From Minisyncoccota bacterium (GTDB lineage Bacteria > Patescibacteriota > Minisyncoccia > Phycocordibacterales > UBA9973): DNA of 64,000 nt. How positions within the stretch are numbered: position 1 is the stretch's first letter; the number at the start of each line of letters is the position of its first letter. This document shows, one piece after another, positions 3,303 through 62,404 of this stretch. The stretch is taken from NCBI GenBank assembly GCA_041666045.1, contig JBAYHR010000001.1:21107-85106 (forward strand), in the 5' to 3' direction. The translations under genes and the position numbers were made by a program. The notes beneath the pieces are model-generated. The model was not told the origin of the DNA. It saw nothing but the letters and a program-made list of their open reading frames with translations, and made no database searches.

Positions 3303-4343
3303 ATGAAAAAAATAACAAAATTTTTAATTTTCTTTTCAATATTAAGTATTTTTCTTTTGCCTAGTATTTCTTTTGCTCAAACTACATCTACTCTCACCAC
3401 TTCAGATCTCACAGCAACTTCCGTTACATTAAATGCAACTGGGTTAACTCCTAATCAAATATATAAATTTAAAATTAATGGAGCTTCTGGTTTAATTGAA
3501 CAGCAATTTACAGCAGATTCTACTGGTACGGGTAAGGTTTCTTTTGGATCTCCGAATTTTCATTTAGAAGTATATAGTGATTTTATTGCTTCGGTAAATG
3601 AATATAATCCTAATACAGGGATTTCATCAAATGCTATTGCCACTTTAAATTTTAAAACATTAGGAGTAAATCTTATTGTATCAGATATTACAAAAAATTC
3701 TGTTACTTTAAACGCAACTGGGTTAACTCCTTCTAGATTACATAAATTTGAAATTGTTGGAGCTTCTGGTTCTCCTACGCAAGAAGTTACAGCGGATGTT
3801 GATAGTAAGGCTAAGGTTACTTTTAATAATTTAGTTTCAGGACATAGTTATGCTGCTAGAGTATATCTTGTAGGATCTGAGACAATTGCCAGAGGTTATT
3901 TTGAGGTTTATTTTACAACATTAGCTTCAGATATTACTCCAATCCCAAACTCGAACCCAAATCCAGATCCCAATCAAAATTCAAGTTCAGACATAACTCT
4001 ATCATCTGGAAATACAAGTTCTGGCGGTGGTAGCAATTTAATTCCTTGTGGGACAACAGCTAATCCTACAGCTTGTGGATTTAATGATTTAATGAAATTA
4101 ATAAATAATGTGGTTAATTTTATTCTTTTTGATATGGTTGTGCCTATTGCGGCTATAATGTTCGCTTATGCTGGTATTCTCCTTATATTTTCTGGTGGTG
4201 ATACTTCCAAGAGATCTAAAGCAAAAAGTATATTTATCAATGTTGCCATAGGATTTATTATTGCAATCGCAGCTTGGCTTATAGTTGAATTTATATTGAA
4301 TCTATTAGGCTATGATAAGACTTGGGATTGGTTTGGCTTTTAA
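3303..4343 (+). CDS. secreted protein with two ~110-aa tandem Ig/FN3-like repeats and a C-terminal pilin-like two-TM domain
   Basis: Signal peptide ending SFAQ. Internal duplication (SVTLNATGLTP...GASG occurs twice). C-terminal hydrophobic-charged-hydrophobic domain is shared with the four downstream small ORFs. Confidence 0.55.
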   Translation: MKKITKFLIFFSILSIFLLPSISFAQTTSTLTTSDLTATSVTLNATGLTPNQIYKFKINGASGLIEQQFTADSTGTGKVSFGSPNFHLEVYSDFIASVNEYNPNTGISSNAIATLNFKTLGVNLIVSDITKNSVTLNATGLTPSRLHKFEIVGASGSPTQEVTADVDSKAKVTFNNLVSGHSYAARVYLVGSETIARGYFEVYFTTLASDITPIPNSNPNPDPNQNSSSDITLSSGNTSSGGGSNLIPCGTTANPTACGFNDLMKLINNVVNFILFDMVVPIAAIMFAYAGILLIFSGGDTSKRSKAKSIFINVAIGFIIAIAAWLIVEFILNLLGYDKTWDWFGF

Positions 4344-4432
4344 AATAGTGTATAATTGATATACTTGTCCCGTTAGAAATTTAATAAGCGGGAGAATAAA
4401 ATAATATGAAAAAAATTAAAATTTCTAATGGG

Positions 4433-4843
4433 ATGAAATTCATTAAGAAAAATCTTTTTGCAATAATTTTATCAATCATTGTTATTTCTGTGCCAATTTT
4501 ATCTTTTGCGCAGAATGGTACAAATGCAATTGGAACAGGAAATGGCACAAATGCTACGGGAACAGGTGGTCTTTCCTCAACGATTGTTAACCCAATAGGA
4601 GTTACAAGCATAACTGGCTTAATTAAAACAATTCTACAAGCTGTCATAAAACTAGGAATACCAATTGTTGCGTTGGCAATAATTTATTGCGGTTTTCTTT
4701 TTGTGAAAGCCTTGGGAAAACCTGAGGAATTAAAAAAAGCAAAAGACGCTTTATTATACACAGTTATAGGCGCGGCAATTTTACTGGGTGCTTGGACGAT
4801 CGCCCAGCTTATATCAGATACAGTTTTAGAAATAGCTAAATAA
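4433..4843 (+). CDS. small secreted/membrane pilin-like protein, paralog 2 (T4SS-pilin/VirB2-TrbC-like architecture)
   Basis: Start chosen at the ATG directly after the conserved hairpin arm; the track ORF starts at 4406. Signal peptide ends SFAQ. C-terminal IPIVALAIIYCGFLFVKALGKPEELKKAKD...ILLGAWTI forms a two-TM hairpin. Confidence 0.5.
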   Translation: MKFIKKNLFAIILSIIVISVPILSFAQNGTNAIGTGNGTNATGTGGLSSTIVNPIGVTSITGLIKTILQAVIKLGIPIVALAIIYCGFLFVKALGKPEELKKAKDALLYTVIGAAILLGAWTIAQLISDTVLEIAK

Positions 4844-4848
4844 AATTT

Positions 4849-5253
4849 ATGAAGATAAATAAAATAAAATATTTTGCATTTGTTATAGTTATGTTTTCTT
4901 TTTTATATATGCCAAGTATTTCTTTGGCTCAACAACAACCTGAACAATCTAGTTCAAGGGGTGTTTTATGCAGTTTAGTTTCAAGTCCAAAATTGGGAGA
5001 TTTATTAGGTTATATTACTTGTATTATTAGCAAGTCTGTAATTCCTTTAATTTTTGCTTTAGCTATTGCTTCTTTTATTTGGGGAGTTGTGCAGTATGTA
5101 ATAAATAATGATGATGAAGCAAAAAAAGCAAAAGGCAAGATGTTTATGATCTGGGGAATTATAGCTTTGACAGTGATGGTTTCTGTTTGGGGATTGGTAA
5201 GTATTTTGGGAAATACTTTTGGAATTCTTAATGTAATACCGCAACTTAAATAG
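4849..5253 (+). CDS. small secreted/membrane pilin-like protein, paralog 3
   Basis: Signal peptide ends SLAQQ. C-terminal WGVVQYVINNDDEAKKAKGKMFMIWGIIALTVMVSVWGLV motif. Confidence 0.5.
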   Translation: MKINKIKYFAFVIVMFSFLYMPSISLAQQQPEQSSSRGVLCSLVSSPKLGDLLGYITCIISKSVIPLIFALAIASFIWGVVQYVINNDDEAKKAKGKMFMIWGIIALTVMVSVWGLVSILGNTFGILNVIPQLK

Positions 5254-5372
5254 TAATCCACATAGGTGTGATTTTGTCTTATCTTTATGGTATAATACAA
5301 AAAGCTTAATAAATTTAGGCAAATTATTATTAGTTTTAAGGTCGCTCAATTATTATTAATTATTAAAAAAAT

Positions 5373-5747
5373 ATGAAAAATAAATTAGCTATTTTATCTG
5401 GTTTTGGATTAGTTTTTGCTCCATTATTAGCTTTTGCTCAACAATCAAATGGTTGTGTCAATGCAATACCTGGAACAATACAAAAGGTAATCTGTACAAT
5501 AGGAAATATTTTAGATACTGTTATTCCAGTTCTTATTGTTTTAGGAATCGTATATTTTGTTTGGGGAGTTGTTCAGTATGTAATGGCTTCTGAAGAAGAG
5601 GCAAAGAAAGTAGGAAGAGAAAGAATGATATATGGTATTATTGGTTTAGTTGTTATTGTAGGTATGTGGGGTCTTGTTGGTATTGTTACTAATACTTTCA
5701 ATTTGTCTGGTACTACAACATATACTATTCCAACAAGTCCTTTCTAG
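5373..5747 (+). CDS. small secreted/membrane pilin-like protein, paralog 4
   Basis: Signal peptide ends AFAQQ. C-terminal WGVVQYVMASEEEAKKVGRERMIYGIIGLVVIVGMWGLV motif. Extended -10 TGGTATAAT upstream. Confidence 0.5.
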   Translation: MKNKLAILSGFGLVFAPLLAFAQQSNGCVNAIPGTIQKVICTIGNILDTVIPVLIVLGIVYFVWGVVQYVMASEEEAKKVGRERMIYGIIGLVVIVGMWGLVGIVTNTFNLSGTTTYTIPTSPF

Positions 5748-5753
5748 TAATAT

Positions 5754-6095
5754 ATGGATTTATTTTTTACAAATATTGCTTACGCGAGCGTAGATTCTGT
5801 TATATCAAAGATTAATACGCTTATAATAAATCCGCTCATTATTTTGCTTTTTGCTTTAGCATTAATGTATTTTCTTTATGGTGTATTTGAATTTCTTTCA
5901 AATGGAGATAATGAAGAAAAAAAGACAACTGGCAAGAAGCATATGATTTGGGGTATTGTTGGACTTACTGTTATGATGGGTGTTTGGTTTATTCTTGGAG
6001 TGATTTTAGATACTTTCAATATAACCGGAATAAATCCTCAGGAGGGAACTGTTCAATTAGATGAATATAATCCTTCATATCCGCAAGTAAAATAA
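5754..6095 (+). CDS. small membrane pilin-like protein, paralog 5
   Basis: Same C-terminal motif: NGDNEEKKTTGKKHMIWGIVGLTVMMGVWFILGV. Confidence 0.45.
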   Translation: MDLFFTNIAYASVDSVISKINTLIINPLIILLFALALMYFLYGVFEFLSNGDNEEKKTTGKKHMIWGIVGLTVMMGVWFILGVILDTFNITGINPQEGTVQLDEYNPSYPQVK

Positions 6096-6169: not shown

Positions 6170-6637
6170 TTAATAAATTTGATACCAATAGAAAATAATT
6201 TTATCTATACCTTCCGGATAAATTAGATAATTTCCTGCTGGCATTAGTGCCCAATCTTTTATTTTTGAGTTGTGTTCAGGTTTTTCGTTACAAATGAAAA
6301 ACCTAGATGGATCCGATTCTAATACATATTTTCCGTTACCTGGACCAATAATTCGTGTATTAGTTTTAGTAGGATCAAGATAAGCTCTTACTGGTTTATC
6401 CATTGTCGCTACCTCTTTTCCGCTCATTGGGTAAGCTACGAATAAATTTGAGAATGAAGTGTTTTCAGTTTTATTTGAGTTCTTGTTTGTTTGTTTTATT
6501 AGACTAAATATATCATTGCGATATATTAACAATAAAACAAGTGCAACAATTAAAACTACCCAAATTAGTAATTTACTAAATTTCAAGCCAAATAACAATA
6601 TAAAAGGCATACCTAAAATTTTTAATAACTTAATCAT
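6170..6637 (-). CDS. membrane protein, possible NfeD-like partner of the upstream SPFH protein
   Basis: N-terminal TM then soluble C-terminal domain. Strong SD aaggagga precedes the ATG. Translationally coupled to the SPFH gene. Confidence 0.3.
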   Translation of the reverse strand: MIKLLKILGMPFILLFGLKFSKLLIWVVLIVALVLLLIYRNDIFSLIKQTNKNSNKTENTSFSNLFVAYPMSGKEVATMDKPVRAYLDPTKTNTRIIGPGNGKYVLESDPSRFFICNEKPEHNSKIKDWALMPAGNYLIYPEGIDKIIFYWYQIY

Positions 6638-6653: not shown

Positions 6654-7688
6654 TTATTTAGTTTGTGCGTTTACCATTGGTACTACAGGTGAAGCTCCAG
6701 TTCCATAAGAAAGAAGATGGGTTTTAGATACCTGTTCAAGATTTGCAAAACTAGAGATATTTTCAACTCCAATTATTTTTGAAATCTCTTCAAGATATTT
6801 CTTTATGCCTTCTCCTTCAGCTTGTTTTGCTAGAGCCATCTTTTGGGCGAAAAGAATTTTAGCATTTCCATCAAGTTCAGCTATTTTTTGAGCCATTTGA
6901 GCTTTTTGAAAATCTTCATCACCTTCTTCCCCTTTACTTAAGTCATAAAATTTCATTTCTATTAAATCTGCTCTTAAATGAAATTTATTTTCAATAATCT
7001 TATTTGTTTCTTCAATTACATTTTTAACAAAAGGAGAATCTGGGTCGGATTTGTTAGTTGTATTGCGAAAATCACTATAAGAAAGAAGTTTACATTGTTC
7101 TTGAATTGCTCCAGCAAAACCAGTTTCAGCTTGTGCAAGGATAATACCATCAGGTTTTATTTTAAAAATTACCTGAATAATGTTTAAAACTTCAAAAGTT
7201 ACTAGAAAGACTAAGTCAATTTTGGATCCGTCGTTTAATTCTACTCTAAGGATTTCAATTGCATGAGTATAAACTCTTTTAAAATAATCAAGTTTTTCAT
7301 TTTTTTTAATTATTTCATAACTAATTTGTTCTCCTTTTACTCCCTTAGCTTTTTTTTCTGTATACTCATTCCATTCTGAAGAAAATTGGTAAATATTTTT
7401 AATTGGTGTTATACCAAAAAAAATAATTCCAAATTCTTTAAATAAAGATCCATTTTTTTTAGGATTAATTGCTTTTACAAGTTCACCATTATTGTTGTAG
7501 TAAAGTCCTTTCATATTAGATAAAACTTCAACAACATTTTCTTCTTTCATTACGAGTTTTCCTTGTTCATTTCCAAGACGGGTGAAATGTGTGTTCCTTT
7601 TTGCTAGATTTTTCATCCCGATAATAATACAAGCTGAAAGTAGTGATATTAAAATTACACTACCTAAAATGATTAAAAAAATTGTCAT
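6654..7688 (-). CDS. SPFH/band-7 (flotillin/stomatin-like) membrane protein
   Basis: N-terminal TM. Core resembles the SPFH fold. C-terminal alanine/glutamate-rich coiled region AQMAQKIAELDGNAKILFAQKMALAKQAEGEG. Confidence 0.45.
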   Translation of the reverse strand: MTIFLIILGSVILISLLSACIIIGMKNLAKRNTHFTRLGNEQGKLVMKEENVVEVLSNMKGLYYNNNGELVKAINPKKNGSLFKEFGIIFFGITPIKNIYQFSSEWNEYTEKKAKGVKGEQISYEIIKKNEKLDYFKRVYTHAIEILRVELNDGSKIDLVFLVTFEVLNIIQVIFKIKPDGIILAQAETGFAGAIQEQCKLLSYSDFRNTTNKSDPDSPFVKNVIEETNKIIENKFHLRADLIEMKFYDLSKGEEGDEDFQKAQMAQKIAELDGNAKILFAQKMALAKQAEGEGIKKYLEEISKIIGVENISSFANLEQVSKTHLLSYGTGASPVVPMVNAQTK

Positions 7689-13703: not shown

Positions 13704-13710
13704 GGTATGG

Positions 13711-13832
13711 ATCCCGTTAGAAGTCTCTCAGTTAATTGAAGTTGCGGGAAGTACCATAAAGAATATATTTCTATAGTCGTTATTAATAAATTAACTACGG
13801 AAATCTAAAGATTTCCTACTTCTAACGGGATG
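13711..13832 (+). promoter_or_regulatory. 5' leader hairpin element, variant copy (CCCGTTAGAAGT ... ACTTCTAACGGG-ATG)
   Basis: 12-bp inverted repeat separated by about 90 nt. The 3' arm ends at ATG 13830. ATGGAT flanks both arms. Confidence 0.5.
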
Positions 13833-14378
13833 GATTTAAAAGAACTAAACAAATCACAGCTTATATTATTAGCAATATTATTAAGTTTTGTAACTTCTAT
13901 TGCTACAGGGATAACAACTGTGACATTAATGCAACAAGCTCCTTCGTCAGTGACTGTGCCTATTAATCGTATTATTAGACAGACTGTTGAAAAAATTGTT
14001 CCAGTAGATACTGTATCTAATAATCAAATTTTATCGGAAGATCAAAAAAAATTACTTGAAGAATTGAAAGCAATTAAACCACTAACTGTAAGTTTATTTT
14101 TGAAAGGAGAAAAAGAAGATAAAATTCTCGGAACAGGATTATTTTTAGGTGACAATAAAGTTGTTATAGCATCTCTTATTGAACCACCAAAAGAAGGTGA
14201 GCAGTATGTAGTTAAAAGTGTTTTAGGTGAACAAAAGGTATCAAAGGTAACACAAGAAAAAGATTTTACCATTATTGAATTAATTGAAGTTGATACTGTT
14301 CCTGTTGTTGATACTACTATTTCAACTACTGACACAACGACAGACATTATAGTTCCACCAGTTGTTCCAACACCATAA
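13830..14378 (+). CDS. membrane-anchored protein with Thr/Val/Pro-rich C-terminus
   Basis: N-terminal TM LILLAILLSFVTSIATGITTV. C-terminal low-complexity TTISTTDTTTDIIVPPVVPTP. Confidence 0.4.
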   Translation: MDLKELNKSQLILLAILLSFVTSIATGITTVTLMQQAPSSVTVPINRIIRQTVEKIVPVDTVSNNQILSEDQKKLLEELKAIKPLTVSLFLKGEKEDKILGTGLFLGDNKVVIASLIEPPKEGEQYVVKSVLGEQKVSKVTQEKDFTIIELIEVDTVPVVDTTISTTDTTTDIIVPPVVPTP

Positions 14379-24714: not shown

Positions 24715-24716
24715 GA

Positions 24717-24826
24717 CTTGTCCCGTACTAAATTTTTGATTAAGTACTATAATTATAAAATATGATTAGAAAGATAAAAATAAATGAAAATTATTAATAA
24801 AAATTTAAAATTTTAGTACTGGGATG
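24717..24826 (+). promoter_or_regulatory. 5' leader hairpin element (CTTGTCCCGTACTAAATTT ... TTTTAGTACTGGG-ATG)
   Basis: Inverted repeat with one G-U pair. The 3' arm abuts ATG 24824. Confidence 0.5.
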
Positions 24827-26803: not shown

Positions 26804-27574
26804 ATGAACAATGGAACAGAATCTGAAAAAACGAGCTTGCAAGATAGAATGCAACAACTCGGAATGCTTGCTGGATTTATCGTAGATTTTCTAGCAACTA
26901 TTTTATCTTATGAACAGGTGAAATACTGGCTTGAACACAAAACCGAGCTAAAGAAAAAATTGCGTGAAGTTTTTTCAATTGTAGATGAGTATGCTAGTAT
27001 CCGCGAAGAATGGCAGAAATTTTACAAAAATCATTTCGGCTGGGATGTAGATTTTAGCCAAGTGATTATTCCTGCTATTCCGACAAATGGGAAATGGAGA
27101 TTGCTTTTTATTTCAAAAGGAATGACGCTGAATTTTGCTTTTAAGATTTGTGAAAAACTTTTTGTAAGTTCGAAGTATTATGATGATTTAGATAAAGCAA
27201 TTTCTAAAAACATTCGTAACACAAGCAGTCACTATGCAGTATGGGTTCGCGATGAAGTTGAACCAGATGCTGAAACTTTAGGAAAATCTACTCGTCAAGC
27301 TGACCCTGATATGAAAATTGGTATTACATTACTTGAAAGAATTATTTTTGAAATTAAGTATTTTACTGAAACAGGGAATCATCTTGATGTTAAAGGAGTT
27401 ACTTTTTGTTCCGGTTCTCGCGATTCCGATGGTGATGTGCCGAGCACGTACTTGGACGACGATGGCGAGTTCGAGGTGCACTGTCACTTTTTGGACGATT
27501 CCTACTCGGACTATGGTATCCGTTCAGTAGTTGAATTAGATGTCATTGTTGGCAGACGTTTACCACCAGAATAA
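26804..27574 (+). CDS. hypothetical protein with GC-rich acidic C-terminal tail
   Basis: Strong SD aaaggagga. Last ~150 nt are about 50% GC, far above the local background. Confidence 0.5.
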   Translation: MNNGTESEKTSLQDRMQQLGMLAGFIVDFLATILSYEQVKYWLEHKTELKKKLREVFSIVDEYASIREEWQKFYKNHFGWDVDFSQVIIPAIPTNGKWRLLFISKGMTLNFAFKICEKLFVSSKYYDDLDKAISKNIRNTSSHYAVWVRDEVEPDAETLGKSTRQADPDMKIGITLLERIIFEIKYFTETGNHLDVKGVTFCSGSRDSDGDVPSTYLDDDGEFEVHCHFLDDSYSDYGIRSVVELDVIVGRRLPPE

Positions 27575-27675
27575 TTTTAAAAAAAAGTATAGAAATAGAG
27601 GACCTATGTTTACGAAAGTAAATATGGGTCTTTTTTTATTTGTATAAATCATTAGTACAAGTTATAATATAAACA

Positions 27676-27747
27676 CTTGTCCCGTTAGAAATTCGACTGA
27701 CGTGGAATAAGTATAAGAATTATTAATTTAAAATTTCTAATGGGATG
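27676..27747 (+). promoter_or_regulatory. 5' leader hairpin element (ACTTGTCCCGTTAGAAATT ... AAATTTCTAATGGG-ATG)
   Basis: 13-bp stem, about 37-nt loop. TATAAT box 6 nt upstream of the 5' arm. The 3' arm abuts ATG 27745. Near-identical to 31089-31160. Confidence 0.55.
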
Positions 27748-31085: not shown

Positions 31086-31088
31086 TTA

Positions 31089-31160
31089 CTTGTCCCGTTA
31101 GAAATTCGACTGACGGGCAATAAAGATAAAATTATTAATATTTAAATTTCTAATGGGATG
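31089..31160 (+). promoter_or_regulatory. 5' leader hairpin element (ACTTGTCCCGTTAGAAATT ... AAATTTCTAATGGG-ATG)
   Basis: Same stem as 27676-27747. Loop begins with the shared CGACTGACG motif. The 3' arm abuts ATG 31158. Confidence 0.55.
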
Positions 31161-61081: not shown

Positions 61082-61084
61082 CTA

Positions 61085-61103
61085 CTTGTCCCGTACTAAA
61101 TTT
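61085..61103 (+). promoter_or_regulatory. orphan 5' arm of the leader hairpin element (CTTGTCCCGTACTAAATTT)
   Basis: Identical to the 5' arm at 24717-24735. No complementary 3' arm found before ATG 61160. Confidence 0.35.
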
Positions 61104-61159
61104 TTGAATAAAAACATTACGATTAAATATAATTAGAAAAAAATGAATAAATATTATTA

Positions 61160-62404
61160 ATGAAAATAAATAATGAAAAAATAAATACTGACCCTGTTGT
61201 TCCTGAGAGTGTTCTTAATATGTATAAAATTGATGGGCAAGAAAATGTTTACTACGAACATTATGTAAAGAGTAAGAGACTTTTTGAATCTAAAATTGAT
61301 CATTCTGAAATTTGCAAAGAAGACGAGTCTTTAATAATAAAGACTAGAAATGAAATTTTAAGACAACCTAAGGATCAAATTATTTTTTATATTATAAGAG
61401 CATTAGAAAATAGTAATATTGAAATACAAAGAATTGGAGCCTCTTTAATAAAAAATGTGCCAAAAGAACAAAGAAAAGATTTGAGTATTCTAGTTTACAA
61501 AAAAGTCATCGACGACTTAAATAACAAAAATATACAAATACAAAGAATAGCAATGAATATGATTCAGTTTATTCCAGAAGATAAACAGGAACAACTAAGG
61601 GAAATTGTTTTGGAAAAGATTATTGATGCATTTAATTCCAGTAATGTGGATGAATGGAGAATTATGGCAAAAAAAATTAATTTTGCACCAAATAGAGAGC
61701 AAGATAATTTGCACGAAATTGTCTACGGAAAAGTAATTGATGCACTTAACCAAGATGATTTAAGAATTCAAAGATTGGCCGCTGTTATGGTACGATATGC
61801 GCCTACCACCAAGCAAGTTGAATTAGAAAATCTTGTTAAAGATAAATTTGAATTGGCCAAGAGAGAAGGAAAATCTAAAGAAATTATAGAGTCACCTCTA
61901 TATATGAAAAGTGAGGAAGGTAGAAATTCAACTTTTTCCCGTGAGATTTTTTCAAAAACGGGTTCTGAAACTACATTATTACTTGGAAAACAATTTAGAG
62001 ATAATTTAATTTTTAGACACATAGAAGAGTCATCTTTTTTAGCATGGAAAAATGCATATGAAAGTCACATTAATTGGCTAAAAGCTGGTTTTGATTATGT
62101 ACCCATCGAACCAATGTATTCATTTCATTATGATCATAATAATAAATTAGTTAATGTTGCATCTGGTGTTTTGGATATAAATCTAGAAGAATGGTATGCA
62201 TTTTCAGGCAATACTTTTAAAAACGACTTAGACAAACAAAAAAATAAAATTCTTGATGTATTAACAGGTTTAAGTATAAATCATGGTCATCCAAATGATT
62301 CAAACTTCTGTTTGCGTTTTTATAGAGATAAAAAAGGAAAGGTTGATATTAATAAAATTCCAAAAATCTATTTGATAGATTTTGATAAAGCTACAAAGCA
62401 ATAA
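61160..62404 (+). CDS. alpha-helical repeat protein (HEAT/ARM-like ~36-aa repeats)
   Basis: Four or five repeats of IQRI(A)..MI...P..Q..L...V..K.ID.LN. Confidence 0.45.
   Translation: MKINNEKINTDPVVPESVLNMYKIDGQENVYYEHYVKSKRLFESKIDHSEICKEDESLIIKTRNEILRQPKDQIIFYIIRALENSNIEIQRIGASLIKNVPKEQRKDLSILVYKKVIDDLNNKNIQIQRIAMNMIQFIPEDKQEQLREIVLEKIIDAFNSSNVDEWRIMAKKINFAPNREQDNLHEIVYGKVIDALNQDDLRIQRLAAVMVRYAPTTKQVELENLVKDKFELAKREGKSKEIIESPLYMKSEEGRNSTFSREIFSKTGSETTLLLGKQFRDNLIFRHIEESSFLAWKNAYESHINWLKAGFDYVPIEPMYSFHYDHNNKLVNVASGVLDINLEEWYAFSGNTFKNDLDKQKNKILDVLTGLSINHGHPNDSNFCLRFYRDKKGKVDINKIPKIYLIDFDKATKQ

Follow-up and report, generated by a model that had tools for sequence, protein, structure and literature searches.

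The Correia elements of Neisseria are miniature inverted-repeat transposons (MITEs) that are co-transcribed as hairpins; they duplicate TA and have no association with start codons. The palindromic elements of Rickettsia lie in-frame inside genes and are translated. Integron attC sites carry R″ (RYYYAAC) at the 5′ end of a hairpin and R′ (GTTRRRY) at its 3′ end, downstream of the cassette gene. An element excised by the piggyBac enzyme retains 4 nt of donor flank as 5′ flaps, which are ligated at the target. piggyBac has CCC ends and a 4-bp TTAA duplication, and its prokaryotic relatives are the IS1380 elements (PMC10813416).

Six elements in the window, i.e., the whole 64-kb stretch of DNA analyzed here, five of which form hairpins, are probably copies of miniature palindromic, non-autonomous inverted-repeat transposons that insert at start codons. 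They resemble Correia elements in being ~70–150 bp long, non-coding, multi-copy, gene-adjacent, co-transcribed, and variably present, with inverted repeats that fold the whole element. In contrast to Correia elements, the family described here duplicates TNNA or nothing, sits on A^TG (carets mark points of insertion), rebuilds the start codon, and spans phyla. With the Rickettsia elements they share the character of palindromic mobile DNA in reduced genomes that survives at coding-linked positions; however, they lie just outside the gene, at the first base of its start codon.

Hairpin elements in the window

The window has a GC content of ~30%, and its AlaRS places it with Paceibacterota/Minisyncoccia/Nomurabacteria, i.e., within the Patescibacteria (Candidate Phyla Radiation, CPR). 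The sequence ACTTGTCCCGT occurs in it exactly five times, always on the forward strand (at 4363, 24716, 27675, 31088, and 61084), and one related copy at 13712 brings the total to six elements in 64 kb; a search of the window at up to 3 mismatches returned no further copies. A preliminary description had assigned a shared motif to six loci, with coordinates that were one base late. Five of these loci do carry ACTTGTCCCGT, but the copy placed at 13711 is without ACTTGT and reads ATGGAT^CCCGTTAGAAGT...ACTTCTAACGGG^ATGGAT. The copies are as follows:

4363–4432, forward strand: A-type copy, with the tail ACTTGT at 4363–4368, the 5′ arm from 4368, and the GGG of the 3′ arm ending at 4432.
13712–13830, forward strand: C-type copy of 119 nt, T-CCCGTTAGAAGT...ACTTCTAACGGG-A.
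24716–24823, forward strand: long B-type copy, ACTTGT-CCCGTACTAAA...TTTAGTAC-T-GGG.
27675–27744, forward strand: A-type copy (the locus of the preliminary description), followed by the MgtC ATG at 27745.
31088–31157, forward strand: A-type copy between an FtsA-like stop codon (31085) and an ATG at 31158.
61084–61159, forward strand: decayed B-type copy that retains the 5′ tail, 5′ arm, and loop, with a degenerate 3′ arm.

The earlier claim that five hairpins end at a start codon holds, with GGG directly before ATG in five of the six copies; these hairpins, whose 3′ arm GGG abuts ATG, span 4369–4432, 13713–13829, 24722–24823, 27681–27744, and 31094–31157. In the three A-type copies, CCCGTTAGAAATT (at 4369, 27681, and 31094) is complementary to AATTTCTAATGGG located 63 nt further on. 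In the C-type copy, CCCGTTAGAAGT at 13713 pairs perfectly with ACTTCTAACGGG 116 nt further on, and in the long B-type copy, CCCGTACTAAA at 24722 pairs with TTTAGTAC-T-GGG. The 27675 and 31088 copies, previously called near-identical, are indeed similar, at a measured identity of 90% (64/71), and the 4363 copy is ~80% identical to either.

The downstream genes, which encode a T4SS-pilin-like protein, an RNase T/DnaQ-like exonuclease, MgtC, and unknowns, are as unrelated in function as had been reported. The start codon of the T4SS-pilin-like gene lies at 4433–4435, and the 24716 copy takes up all of the space from the YceG stop codon (24714) to the RNase T/DnaQ-like gene, whose ATG is at 24824. 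The 13712 copy is flanked on both sides by a 4-bp duplication of TGGA (13708–13711 and 13831–13834), and its own terminal A (13830), together with TG, forms the ATG of gene 13830–14378. Upstream of the 27675 copy, an intrinsic terminator (27597–27634) ends the preceding gene.

Gene callers are sometimes misled by the elements, as with the pilin-like gene and the gene called at 61160. For the pilin-like gene (145 aa), the start codon given in the database is an in-frame ATG in the loop (4406) and not the hairpin-adjacent ATG (4433). The ATG called as the next gene's start at 61160, which falls inside the former 61084 element, is created by an A-to-G change relative to the other copies, and positions 61084–61200 may represent a piece of a former mobile element that is now coding sequence. 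The pilin-like gene belongs to a region (3303–6095) in which five T4SS-pilin/TrbC-like genes (PF18895) lie in a row; one of the five also encodes an fn3 domain.

Among the 48 window genes that are not preceded by an element, only three have a Shine-Dalgarno (SD)-like sequence, 18 have a TANNNT box 6–7 nt before the ATG (leaderless geometry), and 37 have T at position −1. The two TATAAT boxes previously placed 6–7 nt before the hairpin both lie exactly 6 nt before the A of ACTTGT (4351–4356 and 27663–27668), so that the two transcripts would begin at the tail, as had been predicted. Deletion of the element at 4363 or 27675 in silico leaves TATAAT, 6 nt, and ATG, which is the same geometry as in the leaderless genes of this genome. 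A strong SD (aaGGAGGa) is confined to three window genes, 6170–6637 (−), 6654–7688 (−), and 26804–27574 (+). The last of these has no Pfam hit and has its own terminator at 27597–27634; it looks acquired, since mnmA and MgtC have no such gene between them in relatives L003 and L005. A 592-aa gene without a Pfam hit lies between the YceG and exonuclease genes of the closest relative (L003:5997–7775) and is found neither in the window nor in L005.

Core structure, folding, and loops

The core element can be written as Y-CCCGT(TAGAA or ACTAAA)...loop...(TTCTAA or TTTAGTAC)YGGG-R, with complementary first and last bases (T..A or C..G). Among the features by which MITEs are recognized, it has terminal inverted repeats with arms of 13–21 bp. 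Stable hairpins are predicted at the RNA level, in line with the leader structures originally proposed: the folds range from −17 to −37 kcal/mol with z-scores of −2.6 to −5.4 versus shuffles, and the T before CCCG pairs with the A of AUG.

In a 15-pair helix aligned across 40 A- and C-type copies, pairing is retained in 94% of cells, and both bases have changed at six pairs (29 cells), a value that none of 500 shuffles equaled. Covariation of the arms, which the preliminary description proposed as a check, is therefore present; however, it is expected equally for an RNA helix and for transposon terminal inverted repeats bound by one transposase. Mismatches, such as G.T at pair 4 in the A-type and T.T plus a bulged T in the B-type, are inherited and not independent, and the copies contain too few independent events for the asymmetry between G.U and A.C mismatches to report on RNA-level selection.

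Just after the 5′ arm, many copies carry a loop motif, (A)CGGG followed by 1–3 nt and ATAAA/TATAAT (in the window at 4388–4402, 27700–27714, and 31113–31127). In L179:3817–3898 this motif is a full second copy of the terminal CTAACGGG, and the loops of L047, L048, L062, and L117 contain a perfect extended −10 box, GTGATATAAT. The motif may represent an alternative right end (or one nested within the element), a site for the transposase, or a promoter. A consensus scan did not support an internal promoter in the loops, the last hexamer position being variable, and secondary recruitment as a promoter is possible in some copies. A self-cleaving ribozyme or processing module was rejected, since neither the length nor the sequence of the loop is constant across subfamilies. 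A different hairpin, CCCGATACACTCTC...GAGAGTGTATCGGG (37 nt apart), present in at least four places of one 3.7-kb contig (L081:603–3150), probably represents a separate family of palindromic repeats that shares the CCCG/CGGG ends.

Family census

The family as a whole comprises non-coding, multi-copy, dispersed elements of 40–135 nt on at least 120 contigs in each of two collections, and appears from these sequence matches to be general beyond the window. The ACYTGT-tailed (A- and B-type) form was censused by a metagenome scan with the 5′ arm alone (ACYTGTCCCGTWMKAAATT), which matched at least 120 contigs. The matches listed contain 121 A- and B-type copies, 110 of them with a recognizable 3′ arm, and in 103 of these 110 (94%) the arm is followed immediately by ATG, far beyond chance; several of the other listed copies have a degenerate 3′ arm and then ATG. 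Their lengths, among the matches listed, cluster at ~65 and ~100 nt.

At 27 of the 103 unique A- and B-type sites listed, a TANNNT box precedes the tail with an exact 6-nt spacer, versus 1–12 sites at other spacings, and most of the remaining listed sites lie 1–5 nt past a stop codon. These counts suggest that about a quarter of the insertions occurred on former leaderless transcription starts and the rest at operon junctions.

Empty and filled orthologous sites

Relatives with 79–90% identical AlaRS share the gene order of the window, and at three syntenic sites their gaps are only 0–9 nt. In L005 the YceG/exonuclease junction is empty (aaaaTAGg^ATGagaaaac), and the window has 108 nt extra exactly at the caret. 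Conversely, two sites that are empty in the window are filled in L005, with a B-type copy preceding the AlaRS ATG and a C-type copy preceding that of GrpE; at the GrpE copy, TGAG is duplicated relative to the corresponding empty site. The site of the 31088 copy is empty in L003 and holds a decayed copy in L005. BLAST searches with joined flanks yielded more than 15 further empty/filled pairs with a clean insertion immediately 5′ of ATG and nothing duplicated. Presence/absence polymorphism at orthologous sites, another feature by which MITEs are recognized, is thus a property of this family, and ~10% of copies are decayed.

Different loop classes occupy one orthologous site in L010 as compared with L040 and L014, favoring repeated excision and re-insertion over conservation in place. 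At orthologous filled sites, the coding flank is 68–81% identical and the element 73–97% identical. In one orthologous trio compared base by base (L012, L068, and L094), the arms are identical and every difference falls within the loop. To judge from these alignments, host constraint on the hairpin could also explain invariant arms beside diverged coding flanks.

The C-type form and its target-site duplication

The sister form, C-type, is Y-CCCGTTAGAA...TTCTAACGGG-R with a 4-bp TNNA target-site duplication. Such untailed copies are flanked by near-repeats (e.g., ATGAGT^...^ATGAGT). They were collected by a scan for the two arms (CCCGTTAGAA..TTCTAAYGGGR) with unconstrained flanks across one genome per species (GTDB), and 123 copies are among the matches listed. 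In 120 of the 123 listed copies, the base next to CCCG on its outer side complements the one next to CGGG (T:A in 61, C:G in 59). Beyond these end bases, a 4-bp direct repeat is perfect in 76/123 listed copies and has at most one mismatch in 91/123, and shifted registers give 0–1 perfect repeats. In the 76 perfect duplications among the copies listed, the first base is T in 71 and the last is A in 67, and the outer flank is a purine on the left in 59 and a pyrimidine on the right in 57. The end-base and repeat counts define the C-type as Y-CCCG...CGGG-R with a 4-bp TNNA duplication in RTNNAY targets. A 6-bp duplication of ATGNNN was considered and dropped because the 4-bp duplication plus complementary end bases explains all mismatches at positions 1 and 6.

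At start codons, the C-type layout is A^TGNN[Y...R]TGNN, in which the original A remains upstream and the last base of the element, together with TG, remakes ATG. An element of the C..G kind remakes GTG, for example ATGAGC^...^GTGAGC in L074.

Hosts of the listed C-type matches range from 30 to 59% GC and include many classes of Patescibacteria, Saccharibacteria among them, as well as Planctomycetota/Pirellulales/Phycisphaerae, Omnitrophota, Deltaproteobacteria/Syntrophaceae/Desulfovibrionales, Edwardsbacteria, and Stahlbacteria. The same 10-nt ends are found in CPR, Planctomycetota, Omnitrophota, and Deltaproteobacteria, an indication that the element has spread horizontally among phyla living in the same habitats. 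The two-arm pattern also appears in six stretches from five IMG/VR viral contigs (L249–L254), and transfer from host to host by phages, or by misassigned host fragments, is conceivable; a BLAST search of plasmids gave no element matches. At L151:2167–5033, two 92-nt C-type copies in opposite orientation surround a 2.7-kb segment, each with its own TAAA or TTTA duplication; the pair resembles a composite transposon and probably represents two independent insertions.

Preference for start codons

Over all listed C-type copies, 57/123 adjoin a start codon. In a comparison of 80 loci (82 copies) with listed host names, the C-type adjoins an ATG or GTG that begins an open frame of 60 codons or more in 33 of 55 CPR-labeled cases (60%) versus 3 of 18 non-CPR cases (17%; Fisher p = 0.002). 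This occupancy may reflect the fit of ATGNA (ATGNAY) to RTNNAY together with purifying selection in compact, SD-poor genomes. In SD-poor hosts, insertion at −1/+1 would not break SD-AUG spacing, and compact genomes would leave few other tolerated sites. However, AT-rich intergenic TNNA sites are present in the window yet unused, and the fourth target position is A in only ~50% of the listed A- and B-type copies, suggesting that target preference plus selection may not fully explain the 94% start-codon occupancy.

Proposed insertion mechanism and the CYTG tail

Precise insertion, presence/absence at orthologous sites, repeated hits on the same sites, the 4-bp duplication of the C-type, and multi-phylum spread were all observed. 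The elements would be moved by a DDE transposase acting in trans. C-type copies, the basal form, would integrate by a 4-bp staggered cut at R^TNNA^Y, which at start codons falls between A and TG; the original A and one TGNN would stay upstream, and the A or G of the element plus the second TGNN would rebuild ATG or GTG. A- and B-type copies would have inserted at the same bond as the C-type, without duplication, and in this respect they depart from the classical definition of a MITE.

The CCC ends, the 4-bp TNNA duplication, and the scar-free empty sites suggest a piggyBac/IS1380-like enzyme. As in that group, the duplication is of a T..A type (TTAA versus TNNA), the ends are CCC...GGG, and the empty sites are consistent with seamless excision; in contrast, the elements have an extra complementary Y/R base outside CCC/GGG, a target relaxed to TNNA, and a tailed form (CYTG) without duplication. 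The element's CCCGTTAGAAA also resembles CCCTAGAAAG, which we take to be the corresponding piggyBac sequence. Membership in piggyBac/IS1380 cannot be claimed, since the window, ~2.7 Mb of fetched loci, and plasmids yielded neither a transposase nor an autonomous copy bearing these ends. No transposase genes were called in the window. The searches of the two collections covered repeats up to 600 nt apart; lone arms and arm pairs 0.5–3.5 kb apart were considered as candidate autonomous copies, and the intervening open reading frames (in L152, L163, and L202) proved to be housekeeping genes.

In the A- and B-type, a constant CYTG occupies the position of the left duplication, and on the right stands TGNN from the target itself. 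In unbiased data, different bases occur immediately 5′ of CYTG (A 13, G 1, and C 1 in T..A elements; G 8, C 3, and A 1 in C..G elements), which argues that this base derives from the target. The tail may derive from a 5′ flap of the donor flank that escaped repair and was ligated, as in piggyBac; we offer this as a conjecture, in which the flap would be mismatched at a relaxed target and the four donor bases would pass to one of the daughter chromosomes. The position of insertion is ambiguous by 1 nt (before or after A), so the tail may equally be 5 nt of the element. Ordinary duplication-type insertions into a CYTG target also exist (L020/L050 and L205). Two other accounts were discarded: a tail fitted to pair with codon 2 was ruled out because tail position 3 and gene position +4 do not covary, and translational bypass (hopping) between duplicated codons was rejected because the tailed form has no duplicate and codon 2 often differs.

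Alternative explanations

The preliminary description interpreted the hairpins as a family of cis-acting leaders, i.e., host regulatory RNAs, selected as RNA, in which the 5′ end of the mRNA pairs with the start codon for translational control or 5′-end protection. Several properties suit such a leader: the stable folds include the A of AUG, the UGU of the tail can wobble-pair with AUG, the arms covary and stay invariant beside diverging loops and coding flanks, only the sense strand can tolerate the G.U pair and the bulged U, and the −10 geometry sets the transcription start at the tail. Nevertheless, it is an unlikely account of the family. Orthologous junctions of housekeeping genes in close relatives are empty (0–9 nt), other genes are hit in those relatives, decayed copies are tolerated, and the downstream genes have no function in common; C-type copies have target-site duplications in several phyla, where they also occur at non-start sites. 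The tail is not adapted to codon 2, and the conserved mismatches (T.T and the bulge) are inherited and not compensated. Rfam gave only chance hits for the whole window at the gathering threshold and for the element regions at E ≤ 10, the leader thus lacking a match even at this relaxed value; literature searches by concept and by repeat sequence likewise retrieved nothing relevant to the element from the library searched, and the two papers that contain both 10-mers appear to be unrelated to it. As far as sequence comparison can tell, a dedicated regulatory-leader reading is not supported.

It is likewise quite improbable that the hairpins are single-strand DNA elements moved without duplication by an HUH/Y1 transposase (IS200/IS605, REP/RAYT-like) or a tyrosine recombinase (attC-, Xer-like). 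Like IS200/IS605-derived or REP/RAYT elements, the A- and B-type combine a hairpin with a short single-stranded tail, are strand-specific, and make no duplication; the tail lies 5′ beside the hairpin, orientation is fixed, and the target is 3 nt, while the variable loop length and conserved stem base resemble attC sites. However, the same arms have clean 4-bp duplications in 76 of the 123 listed C-type copies, and to our knowledge HUH and tyrosine enzymes make no such duplications. Moreover, both termini form one hairpin, unlike the separate left-end and right-end hairpins of IS200/IS605-derived or REP/RAYT elements, and no Y1 transposase was found, nor any HUH or integrase gene nearby. An integron attC site was rejected on the order of its boxes, which is reversed (GTTAGAA in the 5′ arm and TTCTAAC in the 3′ arm; GTTAG/CTAAC is opposite to R″/R′), and on the position of the elements upstream of housekeeping genes. 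A protein-binding operator, terminator, or attenuator of a regulon, suggested by a palindrome directly upstream of genes, is very improbable given that arm spacing varies across copies from 20 to 114 nt, the stem has no following U-tract, the genes are unrelated, and the element is missing in orthologues.

Conclusions

With the hairpins read as start-codon-inserting MITEs, the hairpin at the 5′ end of the mRNA would be a by-product of insertion that may still alter translation or stability, and some effect on the mRNA appears likely. A more tentative possibility is that the family is a seamless, piggyBac-like one that homes to start codons and carries the CYTG flap, and that in CPR it acts as a portable 5′ leader altering translation or mRNA stability of ~10% of genes.

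In about one in ten window genes, the 70–120 nt between the promoter (or the preceding stop codon) and the start codon are mobile DNA. Each insertion would turn a leaderless mRNA into one that begins with an AUG-sequestering hairpin, providing natural experiments on translation initiation in CPR. If true, a transposon that rebuilds the start codon would represent an unusual choice of target with minimal harm to the host, and a possible bacterial counterpart of piggyBac-style seamless transposition.
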